IMG/VR virus record: IMGVR_UViG_3300042378_000447
Span: 511-64,510 of that record
DNA length: 64,000 bases
Source: a virus
Lineage: Duplodnaviria; Caudoviricetes
Direction: 5' to 3' (one strand)
Shown here piece by piece: positions 8,140 through 14,801 of the stretch. Made by a program: the position numbers and the translations under genes. Positions within the stretch are counted from its first letter, which is position 1; each line of letters starts with the position of its first letter. The notes beneath the pieces were generated by a model. The model had not been told where the DNA came from and made no database searches. It saw only the letters and a list, made by a program, of their open reading frames with translations.

Positions 8140-9903
8140 ATGAAAACTTTTGAATTTAAACTTGACCCCACGGTTGCACAGGTACAAACGATTAATCAAT
8201 GGCTAGACAAACTCAAGTGGGTTTGGAATACAGGGCTGTCACTCAAACTAGCAGGAAGACAGAAATATTATAGAGAGAAAGAAATAGGCGATCGCATTAT
8301 TCCTGATGGTGTAGTTTTGCAGTGGAAATGGCGAAAGGTTGTTACTGAAGACAAGAAAGGTAAGTCTACTGAGAAATGGGAGAAAGTCCGCTTAGTCGGT
8401 ACAGGTGTCATCAGACCTAAAAGCGGTCATCCTTACTGTGAAATTAGACAACACTTAAATATTGAAAACCCTGATAAATATGGACAATGTGAATTTTATA
8501 GGAGTGACAATATTCCCGACTTTATGGCAGATGTTCCCACTAAATTTAAGGCAGGGGTAATTGATTCTTTAAAGAAATCATGGAAAGCTTACGTTACTCC
8601 AAAACACCCCGGTAGAAAGCCAAAATTCAAAGGGAGAAATGATAAAATCAAGTCGCTTGTTAATCTCAATGCTGGGGGTTTATCTAAAGAACTAAAACCA
8701 GAAAAAATACCCGGTTCAAATAATGGTTATGTCCAGTTCCCCAAGCTTGGTAAAATTAAAGTTAAGGGATTATTTGATAGATATGACTGGCAAGAATGGG
8801 GTCCAGCCAGAATAGTTAAAGAACCATCAGGTTACTATCTTCATGTATGCGTTGATATCCCCAATGACCCATTACCAAAATCTGATAAAGCAGTAGGAAT
8901 TGATCCGGGTTTACTATCAGTTATCACCACAGATCAGGGGAGAGAAGTTGAGCCGCCTAAGCTATTTAGGAAACAACAAACTAAGCTAAGACGGTTACAG
9001 CGTAAAGCGTCTAGGCAACAAAAGGGAGGATGTAATCAGAAGAAAACCTATCAAAAAATAGCCTTACACCATGAAAAGATCCGCCGCAGCCGCAACGCAT
9101 TTAATCATAAGCTATCTACTAAAGTTGTGCGTGAGTATTCTGGCATTGTCATGGAAGACTTAAAGATACAAAACCTGAACCGTAAGCCCAAAGCCAAGAA
9201 ACGTGAGGACGGCAATGGCTATGAACAAAACGGTGCAAAACGTAAAGCTGGGTTAAACAAAAGTTTTGCCGATTCAGCACTGGGTGATTTAATCAGTAAG
9301 ATTGAAACAAAGTGTAAAGATACTGATAGAGAGTTTGTAAAAGTTGCAGCACACTACACTACGGTTGACTGTTCAAAATGTGGTGCTAAAATAAAGAAAG
9401 CATTGAGCCAAAGAACTCACCGCTGTACAGAATGTGGTCACACTGAAGGACGTGATTCTAACGCAGCTAAGAACATCTTGCTCAAAGGCAAAAAACAATT
9501 ATCAGCAGTGTACCGCGCTTGGGCGTGGGAACATGGGGAAACCCGAAAGCCTGGCTCTGATTCCAATACGGAATGTCACCAGGAAGGTGTGAAAGCACCA
9601 CCGGAGGATGGATATTCCTCCCAATTAAACCCCGAAAGGGGAACTCAGCGCGGAAGGGGGGATGTAAAAACCTCTAAAGCCGTGAAAACAACCTCAAAGG
9701 TAGACACCGTAAGCAATCTGAACCTTGACAATTTATCCATCACCCGCGCACCTTACCCAGTAAGCATTTCAGCTAATTCAGCGAAAACTCAAAAGCCTGG
9801 AACAAAGAAAAATAAGAGATCCGCGCGATCGGGGGATGAAACCTTTACACAGCTTACGATCTGGGATACGGCAGGTGAAACCGGACTTGGGGAACTGAGT
9901 TAA
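8140..9903 (+). CDS. TnpB-derived compact type V effector (Cas12f/V-U-like), predicted active RuvC
   Basis: RuvC-I GIDPG, RuvC-II MEDL, Zn ribbon CSKC..CTEC, RuvC-III RDSNAAKN; stop codon lies inside the first CRISPR repeat. Confidence 0.85.
   Translation: MKTFEFKLDPTVAQVQTINQWLDKLKWVWNTGLSLKLAGRQKYYREKEIGDRIIPDGVVLQWKWRKVVTEDKKGKSTEKWEKVRLVGTGVIRPKSGHPYCEIRQHLNIENPDKYGQCEFYRSDNIPDFMADVPTKFKAGVIDSLKKSWKAYVTPKHPGRKPKFKGRNDKIKSLVNLNAGGLSKELKPEKIPGSNNGYVQFPKLGKIKVKGLFDRYDWQEWGPARIVKEPSGYYLHVCVDIPNDPLPKSDKAVGIDPGLLSVITTDQGREVEPPKLFRKQQTKLRRLQRKASRQQKGGCNQKKTYQKIALHHEKIRRSRNAFNHKLSTKVVREYSGIVMEDLKIQNLNRKPKAKKREDGNGYEQNGAKRKAGLNKSFADSALGDLISKIETKCKDTDREFVKVAAHYTTVDCSKCGAKIKKALSQRTHRCTECGHTEGRDSNAAKNILLKGKKQLSAVYRAWAWEHGETRKPGSDSNTECHQEGVKAPPEDGYSSQLNPERGTQRGRGDVKTSKAVKTTSKVDTVSNLNLDNLSITRAPYPVSISANSAKTQKPGTKKNKRSARSGDETFTQLTIWDTAGETGLGELS
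9508..9660 (+). ncRNA. candidate tracrRNA/omegaRNA-like scaffold inside the 3' tail of the effector CDS
   Basis: TACCGCGCTTGGGCG motif shared with locus 2; split anti-repeat CAATTAA+CCCCGAAAGGGG hairpin+AACTCAG (9622-9648) complementary to repeat CTGAGTTAATTG; ends approximate. Confidence 0.55.
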
Positions 9904-12932: not shown

Positions 12933-14801
12933 TTACTTTGTCAAGCGTTTTTTCTTAAATCTTTTAGGCTTTTGATAAACTAGCTTAACATTATGATATT
13001 TGACCTCTCCCAGTTCAAAACCACCATTTTGCTTATGATTTCTAGCAGCGTTAGTATCAGCTTGCTGGGGAATGTCAAATAACTTACAGTCAGAGTTTTT
13101 GCAGACAAATTCATGTTGCGATCGCCGTTCTCCCTTTTGTCCACAACAATGACAAGTTTGAGAACTGTAGTTAGCAGGTGGTTCATGGAAGTTGCCACCT
13201 CTATTTTCTGTTTTCTGTTTGGTTTTAGCTTTTAAATCGCTTAAACATCTTTGTCGCATAATCCAGTTTAAACCGCGTTTAGCCGATGCACCATTGTGAG
13301 CATATCCCACCCCTTCTGGTAATGCTTTTGGCTCTACTTGTTTTAGTAGATTATTAATCTGCGTGTCTTCCCAGGCAATATGTTCATAAGTACGAGATAA
13401 TCTTGTGGATAGCTTATGATTAAAAGCATTAGAGGAATTAGCCCCACGTTCGTGTAGACGGCTTATTTTTTCCTGTAACTTAGTTTCATTCTTTGTCTTG
13501 ATTCTAGGGGTCTTGTTGCCCAAACTTTTCCACTTTTTATCGTTAATTAATTCAGCGTTGTCTAAGCGTGATTGTAATTCCTCAATATGAATTGAAACCC
13601 GCTCTCTAGTAAGGTTAGGAAGGAATAAAGCACCATGATCTGTAGACACAACAGCCTGTACTCCGGGGTCAATACCCACACTTAAATCTTTGCCTTTAAC
13701 TATTGATGATTCCTTGATTTGTTGTTCAAGAAATTTGATTTTTGATTTGATATCTTCGTACTCTTGACTATCTTCTCCAAACTCTTTTTTAACCTTGGGT
13801 AATTTCTTTACCAGCGCGATTTTCTCTTCATGTAATGGATGAGCAATGACAATATTAATGTAGTACCCTGATGGATTTTGGGTTAACATATATGTGCGTG
13901 GTAAAACTTGAGACAAGTTCAATCTTTTTACCCAATTCTTATCAATAATGGTAATAGGACTAAACCCAGTGACAGTAACTATGTTTTTATTAACGTCAAT
14001 CCTATTAGGCGCACACTGATTGTTAGATAAAGTTGTAATCTTGTCACTGTCTTTTTTGAATTTAGGCTTTCTACTGTTCATCCTTTTAGGGTCTAGAAAT
14101 GCCGACCATGATTCTTTAAAAAATGCCAGTAGTCCGCCTATATAGTGAGAGGAAACTTGTAAGTCTGGTAAATTTTGGAATGCCCTTAAAGTGTTCAGTC
14201 CATTCACGTTATCAAGTTTCTCCAAAGTAGTCAGTTCCCTACCTTCAAACTTTCCACCAGGGAATGTACGGTACTTATGGGGGACTATTTCTATTCGTTG
14301 CCAAAGTTTATCACCCTTAACTAATTTGTATCCTTTAACGTGAATAATACCTTTCTTGGTATTAATTGGGATGTTGATATTTTCGTCTCTCTTCCAGTAG
14401 TTCCCACCTGTGGCTATCTGACAGGATAAACCTTCATAACCGCTATTCCCCAGCCGTAAAGGAACGGGAATAATCCCATCTAAACTAAATGAACTCCATC
14501 TGGCAAATATGTCAAATTTAGCCACTAATTCCTGTTCTTTTTTAGTCAGTCTAGGCTTATCCTTAGTCCTGTAATAATCCTTTACTAATTGCTGCTGTTC
14601 AGGTTTAAGCTTGTCTAATTTTTCAGTAGCTTTATCCAAGTCAGCACTGAGTTTAGCTGCCCAAGCATACCACGTCACGCAATGGTTATGTAGTTGATTA
14701 GAAAGTGTTAAGTTCCACAACCATGTTAGTTCTTCCAAATAGCGATCGCACAGTTGCACCTGATCAGTGGTAAGTTTGATTTTGATTTTGATTGTTTTCA
14801 T
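12933..14801 (-). CDS. second TnpB-derived type V effector (C2c8/V-U2-like), predicted active RuvC
   Basis: GIDPG, WEDT, CHCC..CKNSDC, ADTNAARN; adjacent to array 2; subtype label is inference. Confidence 0.85.
   Translation of the reverse strand: MKTIKIKIKLTTDQVQLCDRYLEELTWLWNLTLSNQLHNHCVTWYAWAAKLSADLDKATEKLDKLKPEQQQLVKDYYRTKDKPRLTKKEQELVAKFDIFARWSSFSLDGIIPVPLRLGNSGYEGLSCQIATGGNYWKRDENINIPINTKKGIIHVKGYKLVKGDKLWQRIEIVPHKYRTFPGGKFEGRELTTLEKLDNVNGLNTLRAFQNLPDLQVSSHYIGGLLAFFKESWSAFLDPKRMNSRKPKFKKDSDKITTLSNNQCAPNRIDVNKNIVTVTGFSPITIIDKNWVKRLNLSQVLPRTYMLTQNPSGYYINIVIAHPLHEEKIALVKKLPKVKKEFGEDSQEYEDIKSKIKFLEQQIKESSIVKGKDLSVGIDPGVQAVVSTDHGALFLPNLTRERVSIHIEELQSRLDNAELINDKKWKSLGNKTPRIKTKNETKLQEKISRLHERGANSSNAFNHKLSTRLSRTYEHIAWEDTQINNLLKQVEPKALPEGVGYAHNGASAKRGLNWIMRQRCLSDLKAKTKQKTENRGGNFHEPPANYSSQTCHCCGQKGERRSQHEFVCKNSDCKLFDIPQQADTNAARNHKQNGGFELGEVKYHNVKLVYQKPKRFKKKRLTK

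Follow-up and report, generated by a model that had tools for sequence, protein, structure and literature searches.

We identified two convergent miniature CRISPR effector genes, with two abutting CRISPR arrays between them, in a 64,000-nucleotide (nt) stretch of viral DNA (hereafter, the window), which makes up nearly all of the 64,510-base IMG/VR record IMGVR_UViG_3300042378_000447 (CheckV completeness 65%). The locus likely comprises two independent type V modules, each dependent on a trans-activating CRISPR RNA (tracrRNA), that are carried by a single cyanophage and whose arrays abut through the position of the Cas12p cassette. Module 1 is predicted to consist of a C2c8 (V-U2) gene with a scaffold RNA in its 3' tail, followed at once by a 27-spacer array, and module 2 of a Cas12p (V-P) gene with about 9 spacers in its array and a tracrRNA encoded between the two. 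Each effector would take CRISPR RNAs (crRNAs) from its own array via its own repeat:anti-repeat duplex and a 4-bp pseudoknot, and would then cut matching DNA of competing mobile elements, an activity that has been published for Cas12p and that we infer for C2c8. Because the record lacks Cas1-Cas2, new spacers would presumably be acquired through the Cas1-Cas2 of the host. An earlier note on this DNA had described two distinct convergent mini-CRISPR systems on a phage, and this description, with a separate repeat and a separate tracrRNA for each module, is supported in substance. The locus is a real and rare combination of two known systems and no new kind of system; new are the pairing, its apparent origin within the array of C2c8, the matched difference in the pseudoknots, the suggested shared target and the likely Nostocales host of Cas12p. 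The features of the locus are as follows.

8140–9903, plus strand: effector 1, C2c8 (protein P0001), 587 amino acids (aa), with a match to NF038192 and RuvC and zinc residues
9512–9648, plus strand: candidate C2c8 tracrRNA inside the tail of the open reading frame (ORF), 5' block ACCGCGCUUGGGCG, 3' end provisional
9874–11872, plus strand: CRISPR array 1, 28 repeats of 37 nt (consensus GGTGAAACCGGACTTGGGGAACTGAGTTAATTGCAAG), 27 spacers, leader on the C2c8 side
11873–11904, no strand: inter-array junction of 32 nt, of spacer length, between the distal array ends
11905–12647, minus strand: CRISPR array 2, 10 full 37-nt repeats and 1 truncated repeat, minus-strand repeat CTTGCAACTAAGACTGGGGACTGAGGATAGTTGAAAC
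12725–12909, minus strand: Cas12p tracrRNA, putative extent, with 5' end ACCGCAGUUUGG and length taken from the published 185 nt
12916–12944, minus strand: sigma-70-like promoter match (TTGACA, 17 nt, TAATAT), a consensus match directly upstream of the Cas12p tracrRNA start
12933–14801, minus strand: effector 2, Cas12p ('Cas12 hacker-1', type V-P; protein P0002), 622 aa, assigned by identity to PDB entries

The two effectors

P0001 is predicted to be a bona fide, already catalogued type V-U2 (C2c8) nuclease rather than the unplaced TnpB-family protein for which it had been taken: it scored 487.6 bits against the NCBIfam C2c8 model NF038192 (curated cut-off 350), over model positions 1–456 of 457, and also matched the OrfB_IS605, TNB and HTH domains of Pfam. 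The RuvC residues D255, E339 and D439 and the zinc-ribbon cysteines C411, C414, C429 and C432 are invariant in 19/19 aligned relatives, and the catalytic residues align with the catalytic motifs of ISDra2 TnpB. The low-complexity tail of the protein (about residues 460–587) overlaps the scaffold RNA. No cas genes other than C2c8 accompany the adjacent array, which starts inside the end of the ORF, with the stop codon located within repeat 1. The ORF is open up to or into the array in 6/8 aligned members of the C2c8 family, the exceptions being phage CL131 and the related locus L018. By sequence, the closest solved structure is Cas12p (E = 9e-30), and an AlphaFold (AF2) model of residues 1–470 (predicted local distance difference test score, pLDDT, 77) retrieved Cas12p as the top Foldseek match (9jg3/9jfs, E = 5e-22), followed by TnpB (8h1j). 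Complex predictions for residues 1–250 (with alignment) and a Dolichospermum thioredoxin gave run scores of 0.74, 0.00 and 0.00, which speak neither for nor against binding. A segment of the C2c8 coding sequence (8710–8754, around NGYVQFPKLGK) is complementary to the middle of the array 1 repeat, at −29 to −34 kcal/mol in the window and in the related locus L014, maybe by chance.

A V-U2 locus was published in 2018 for the Aphanizomenon phage vB_AphaS-CL131 (PMC6293099; MG209611), as the earlier note had stated. The gp061 protein of CL131 is 77% identical to effector 1 (77.7% at the DNA level), and both loci have a same-direction downstream array, no other cas genes and a cyanophage setting. 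However, the CL131 ORF stops at 466 aa and its array starts 256 nt later, whereas the 587-aa window ORF runs into repeat 1; moreover, CL131 lacks Cas12p, its sole match to P0002 being a cross-hit on gp061. The CL131 paper (PMC6293099) reported no tracrRNA; CL131 shares the conserved scaffold, including its covarying anti-repeat.

P0002 is, judged by its sequence, the published and structurally solved Cas12p: residues 1–613 are 100% identical to PDB 9jfs_A/9jg3, the catalytic residues D378, E478 and D582 are at the published positions, and so are the thioredoxin-pocket residues checked (W44, Y45, W47, L51, W102, F105, C127 and I172). The protein therefore is not an unrecognised TnpB-like effector, and the novelty claimed for it in the earlier note was too high, although the claim of two tail-to-tail TnpB-family proteins with D-E-D triads and a zinc ribbon holds, with the residues located and the ORFs confirmed. 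Against NF038192, P0002 scored 194.2 bits, under the cut-off. In the preprint text available, Cas12p is described as a phage-derived family of 12 proteins that requires both tracrRNA and crRNA, recognises a GTN protospacer-adjacent motif (PAM), uses D378/E478/D582 for catalysis and carries a thioredoxin-binding domain, with double-stranded DNA cleaved only when the host thioredoxin TrxA is bound (Wang et al., bioRxiv 10.1101/2025.01.20.633832; journal version Nat Microbiol 2026, doi 10.1038/s41564-025-02224-z, as cited in PMC13728456). The same portion of the preprint calls the hosts undetermined and does not contain the strings 'V-U', 'c2c8', 'cyanobacteri' or 'type IV' (10.1101/2025.01.20.633832). 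The published system and the window have in common the protein, a 37-nt repeat ending in AAAC, GUUU at tracrRNA positions 7–10 and a phage location, to which the window adds the adjoining C2c8 module, a type IV-B-like operon and a Nostocales-type phage.

Cas12k (type V-K), the effector of cyanobacterial CRISPR-associated transposons, works with 37-nt repeats, as found here, and shares with Cas12p the cyanobacterial association and tracrRNA dependence. Unlike Cas12k, both window effectors keep an intact RuvC triad and long arrays, and no Tn7-like genes were noticed. The Cas12p preprint, in the text available, likens the GTN PAM and the PAM-interacting domain of Cas12p to those of Cas12k (10.1101/2025.01.20.633832).

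An IS200/IS605-type TnpB transposon was considered and rejected: no Y1 transposase was found in the record, and both proteins fall under the cut-off of 425 for the IS200/IS605 TnpB model NF038281 (P0001, 171.9; P0002, 34.8). In relatives, both effector genes occupy fixed positions beside arrays. In TnpB elements, the guide scaffold (omega RNA or reRNA) overlaps the 3' end of the gene, and the C2c8 guide scaffold does likewise. The fold and catalytic core of IS200/IS605 TnpB (ISDra2, PDB 8H1J/8EXA) are common to the window effectors, whereas the single fused guide of TnpB contrasts with the multi-spacer arrays and separate tracrRNA–crRNA pairing in the window.

The two effectors are only 26% identical to each other. 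We built a quick tree of 82 rows (from 150 listed hits, P0003–P0060 and one in four of those that followed, each 400 aa or longer; the others were left out), in which the C2c8 and Cas12p clades are separate and well supported, and an array-less protein of Cylindrospermopsis phages is the sister to Cas12p. Recent duplicates or sister clades are ruled out by this identity and topology. In all ten sampled relatives of Cas12p, the best NCBIfam match was the C2c8 model, always under the cut-off.

Arrays, guide RNAs and spacers

Matches to the two repeats number 29 for the array 1 type and 11 for the array 2 type, against 0.01 and 0.00 expected by chance. Array 1 has spacers of 32–41 nt, of which spacers 25 and 26 are identical, and its terminal repeat carries 1 change. 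In array 2, the repeat at 12020 is a variant and that at 11979–c.12005 is truncated, whereas the outermost repeat (11905) is a perfect consensus copy. Thus, the previous count of 28 and 11 repeats across a 32-nt gap is right for array 1 and the gap, with the 11 consisting of 10 full 37-mers and one truncated copy, and the claim that degenerate repeats cluster in the middle of the locus is only partly right, the last repeat of array 2 being intact.

The arrays are polar, each with its leader at the side of its own gene, and the evidence supports entry of new spacers at the gene-proximal end, as had been proposed. The orientation of array 2, with the leader and tracrRNA on the Cas12p side, is set by the published Cas12p crRNA, in which the repeat end AAAC is followed by the guide. 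For array 1, we compared the locus with contigs of four public sequencing runs (X1–X4), not using array stretches without contig cover as evidence, nor a joint in X2 between 12056 and 12652 with a shorter side of 23 letters. A single contig of X3 joins 9872 to 11611 (shorter side 70 letters), so that repeat 1 is directly followed by spacer 25; this shorter variant keeps old spacers, which fits gene-proximal growth or an internal deletion. No terminator-like site was found at the junction (11873–11904), a result that says nothing on regulation by convergent transcription.

The Cas12p tracrRNA, read from 12909 on the minus strand, has GUUU at positions 7–10, as published for the pseudoknot with the repeat-terminal AAAC, and its anti-repeat segments directly follow a conserved hairpin, GACCAGCCGGAACTATGGCTGGCA. 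The region between gene and array is conserved in the Cas12p family, and the anti-repeat changes with the repeat type across loci. The duplexes formed with the own repeat have energies of −44.5 (L013), −34.0 (L010), −32.1 (L007) and −22.6 kcal/mol (window); as a rule, the anti-repeats pair less well with foreign repeats. In the L010 locus (8231–9315), a Cas12p relative is followed by two consecutive arrays with two repeat types, and there are two tracrRNA anti-repeats, one per type (−34.0 and −30.4 kcal/mol).

For C2c8, a block starting with GTGTACCGCGCTTGGGCGTGGG (9508) is nucleotide-identical in 7/7 aligned loci while the adjoining codons vary; in CL131, the stop codon falls within this block and conservation runs on past the stop. 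Bases 7–10 from the ACCGC start of the candidate tracrRNA are CUUG (9518–9521), complementary to the C2c8 repeat end CAAG. Further downstream, a hairpin (9603–9621) precedes a putative anti-repeat, CAATTAA (9622–9628) and ACTCAG (9643–9648), which is split by a second hairpin (9629–9642). Across the 7-locus alignment, 97.8% of the cells in the 13 pairs of the hairpin and repeat:anti-repeat are paired, against 74% after shuffling (0/500 shuffles equal), 10/13 pairs are changed on both sides, and slid controls reach 24–54%. The alignment represents only 3–4 independent lineages, and we consider this good, not overwhelming, evidence that the C2c8 scaffold covaries with the repeat. In the region 7900–15700, no Rfam match was found at E ≤ 1.

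The two scaffolds have homologous 5' blocks, in which bases 7–10 match the end of the respective repeat, CUUG:CAAG in C2c8 and GUUU:AAAC in Cas12p. This swap of the same four bases to fit each repeat end argues for orthogonality, and the two modules apparently employ two related, orthogonal guide-RNA scaffolds.

Spacers A1_22 and A2_08, from arrays 1 and 2, respectively, match at 26/33 positions in the same sense, a similarity reached by 0/200 shuffles, and both encode A(K/N)EIWQ(L/Q)LKQ; thus, each array appears to hold a spacer against alleles of one gene. Their protospacers would start one base apart, which is too little to derive a C2c8 PAM. Three array 1 spacers contain a common core of 17–20 nt, on both strands; the 20-nt core had 0 matches in IMG/VR, and three metagenome contig matches to it were dismissed as chance, with flanks that differ from the spacers. 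None of the window array 1 spacers is common to the arrays of the relatives L014, L016 and L017, that is, spacer turnover is complete between relatives with 94–98% protein identity. Searches for targets gave nothing at E < 0.05 outside arrays in the window and all fetched loci, no match for either array among 50,697 phage records and 72,556 plasmids, only repeat-like matches in 10 related records or genomes, and 0 matches at E ≤ 0.001 in 201 Nostocaceae genomes.

Origin of the pairing and integrity of the junction

Among IMG/VR records, we found 7 loci with Cas12p relatives (79–97% identical) and 11 with C2c8 relatives (67–100%). A downstream same-orientation array is present at 6/7 Cas12p loci, the seventh contig ending 249 nt past the gene, and an array was detected at 8/11 C2c8 loci, the others being L018, with 2 repeats, and two contigs that end too early. 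Each module occurs alone in relatives, and the two effectors occur together in 0/10 related records or genomes, where only cross matches (36–38% local identity) were obtained. The earlier claim that a paired convergent architecture is undescribed therefore stands for the pair, for which no description was found in the literature searched (supplementary locus figures on Cas12p, outside that search, may show neighbours), but not for the components, both of known kinds.

Two relatives with the window backbone are informative on how the arrays came to abut. L007 carries Cas12p and array 2 without C2c8 or array 1, whereas in L018, C2c8 and two repeats are directly followed by the type IV operon. 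The 39 nt after the second repeat of L018 recur at window positions 15680–15718 and in L007, that is, in 3/3 backbones carrying the type IV operon, and end in the following feature.

15699–15718, plus strand: orphan half-repeat of array 1, TGAACTGGGTTAATTGCAGG, with 3 mismatches (0.01 expected by chance), adjoining the end of csf1

We read this orphan half-repeat as the former terminal repeat of array 1. Together with the L018 layout, it would place 11873–15679, which contains the junction, array 2, the tracrRNA, cas12p and 0.9 kb upstream of it, between array 1 and its former terminal repeat. The arrays would abut, then, because this Cas12p cassette (about 11873–15679) entered the C2c8 array at its far end, or its absence from L018 would reflect a deletion there. 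What had been called a fused array does abut but is better read as a Cas12p cassette within the far end of the C2c8 array. Directly upstream of the orphan half-repeat, a 21-nt unit is repeated 3.2 times in tandem (15582–15648).

Other rearrangements were observed around these modules. A 109-aa ORF (window 7602–8021; L007:9006–9422) is inverted in L007 relative to its neighbours, and the junction 11873–11904 resembles the 5' start of the homologue of this ORF in L007 (ATGTTCCCA...). In the C2c8-only record L016 (7950–9131), ORFs of 221 and 112 aa lie between array-1-type repeats, followed in the same direction by a solitary Cas12p-type repeat (about 30/37 nt like that of L007), in a record without a Cas12p gene; this repeat may be a leftover, or it may act as a decoy in the manner of RNA anti-CRISPRs. 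The Cylindrospermopsis phages RM-2018a and Cr-LKS4 (L005/L006:5890–7896) encode the 668-aa sister of Cas12p, 44% identical, with no CRISPR array detected in the 13.8 kb around the gene; upstream of it, a 46–47-nt element is repeated 366–577 nt apart.

The junction could alternatively be an assembly chimera in which two strains, one with C2c8 and array 1 and the other with Cas12p and array 2, were joined at 11873–11904, a concern raised in the earlier note. CRISPR repeats are classic assembly breakpoints, and single-module forms do exist on near-identical backbones, with C2c8 and array 1 absent from this site in L007 and L014 breaking off within array 1. However, array 1 and array 2 repeats are alike only over about 8 nt at their ends, too short for a k-mer join, and the orphan half-repeat beyond cas12p independently puts both modules in one lineage. 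Most directly, 20 of 24 listed public runs, all lake, freshwater or plankton metagenomes, hold part of 9300–13300 (best word share 0.43), and in one of them, X2, a 167-nt contig matches 11767–11933 with 0 differences, reading from the last spacer of array 1 through its unique terminal repeat and the gap to 29 nt into array 2, with the next contig matching 11912–12125. As 7 sites in 9301–9903 distinguish X2 from the window and mark it as another strain, this exact bridge makes a chimera very unlikely indeed.

Several points weigh against two functional modules with the history proposed here. The choice between insertion and deletion rests on three backbones only, and the third of the genome that the 65% complete record lacks could encode adaptation genes. 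We found no biochemical report on C2c8 (activity, PAM or tracrRNA) in the literature searched, and no protospacer in any set searched. The anti-repeat of the window-clade C2c8 (7 + 6 nt) has a simple duplex energy no better than that of shuffled tails; the support for this anti-repeat comes from position and covariation. On the window anti-repeat of Cas12p, the window array 2 repeat (−22.6 kcal/mol) pairs less well than an L007-type repeat (−33.2 kcal/mol), because CTGGGCTT in the repeat has become CTAAGACT with no matching change in the anti-repeat segment AAGCCCAG; the variant at 12020, an older repeat, is intermediate.

This drift would also suit an alternative in which one module is functional and the other a decaying passenger, be it array 2 with its drifted and partly truncated repeats or C2c8 with a gene running into its array, and the L018 backbone tolerates the loss of nearly everything between C2c8 and the type IV operon. 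We consider decay unlikely, given that both effector ORFs are intact with all catalytic residues present, that a gene reaching or entering repeat 1 is the norm of the C2c8 family and that none of the 27 array 1 spacers is found in close kin. As for Cas12p, the available preprint text reports this exact protein as active in assays with a 37-nt repeat and describes the repeat in the solved complex as reduced to its last 10 nt (10.1101/2025.01.20.633832); these 10 nt are unchanged in the window. Two working modules, each with its own guide RNAs, thus remain the preferred reading.

The phage, its host and the type IV-B-like operon

The window likely covers some two thirds of the genome of a tailed phage of about 100 kb that infects filamentous, bloom-forming Nostocales (Dolichospermum/Aphanizomenon type). 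Its replication region is 75–79% identical to two C2c8-bearing records, one of which is a complete 100-kb genome with terminal repeats, and two large ORFs match a virion-protein PHROG. The host of CL131 is Aphanizomenon (PMC6293099), and a scaffold of Dolichospermum circinale AWQC310F contains a C2c8 gene 88% identical to that of the window, with 14 repeats; a Nostocales host is accordingly likely for Cas12p as well. A Dolichospermum genome gave 7 thioredoxin matches. In the 64.5-kb record, itself 65% complete, there were 0 matches to Cas1 or Cas2, the adaptation module that an autonomous adaptive CRISPR-Cas locus would carry, and none to thioredoxin or a Y1 transposase, which agrees with the earlier statement that transposase and adaptation genes are absent. 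Elsewhere in the window, about 13.8 tandem copies of a 63-nt unit (63134–64000) lie within an ORF on the minus strand (62970–63989) and encode a 21-residue protein repeat, not a CRISPR array. A 15-nt unit is repeated 5.9 times at 20017–20105 and, as the reverse complement, 7.0 times at 48624–48728 inside a Rep-like gene; by this inverted recurrence, these repeats look like iterons.

One further CRISPR-related feature forms the context of the locus.

15683–19499, minus strand: type IV-B-like operon with csf1, cysH-like, csf3, csf2 and a small cas11-like ORF, co-directional with cas12p

The NCBIfam matches of this operon are weak and all under the cut-offs (Csf1, 5e-8; Csf3, 3.5e-12; Csf2, 1e-7); PAPS_reduct gave 4.8e-18. 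L018 has the operon at 93–99% identity, and L007 and L013 have parts of it. In the Cylindrospermopsis phages, a homologue of csf3 (31% identical) was seen at c.11090–11850, about 3 kb from their array-less Cas12p-like gene, and in L016 (c.3983–4170) and L017 (c.4927–5123), C2c8 is preceded by frameshifted csf1 ends.

The arrays, or one of them, might also or instead feed this neighbouring array-less complex (Csf1/2/3, Cas11-like and CysH-like proteins). Operon and cas12p are 0.9 kb apart on one strand, and the association recurs: the operon is beside Cas12p in L007, L013 and the window, and the csf3 homologue and csf1 remnants just described lie near a Cas12p-like gene and C2c8, respectively. 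Many class 1 repeats, furthermore, end like those of the array 2 type, in (A/G)TTGAAAC, which we count in favour of such use. However, it is the type V tracrRNAs with which the repeats covary, no type IV genes lie within 6 kb of Cas12p and its array in L009–L012, and L018 keeps the type IV operon with only 2 repeats. No Cas6/Csf5-like gene was seen, with no search aimed at one, and type IV-B systems are described as array-less in the part of the source available (PMC11656645). Feeding of the type IV-B-like complex by these arrays thus seems very improbable, and the arrays are better assigned to the two type V effectors.

We can tentatively envisage, although we find it rather doubtful, that the pairing itself has been selected: related cyanophages would be in an arms race with one another and with other elements in their hosts, and the two orthogonal effectors would both be aimed at a common set of rival genes. 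If so, one effector would be gated by the host thioredoxin and the other possibly not, and escape from one system, be it by PAM or seed mutation, an anti-CRISPR protein or a solitary decoy repeat like that of the Cas12p type in L016, would not save the rival. The type IV-B complex may then take part as well, using or sequestering the same RNAs.

To conclude, this locus provides a natural setting for Cas12p, one that is absent from the published text available: a Nostocales-type cyanophage in which it has a second miniature nuclease and a type IV-B operon as neighbours. The matched pair of scaffolds could guide the first biochemical test of a V-U2 nuclease, and the orphan half-repeat suggests how one CRISPR cassette can end up inside the array of another. 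Finally, the shared target of one spacer per array suggests double coverage of the same competitor.

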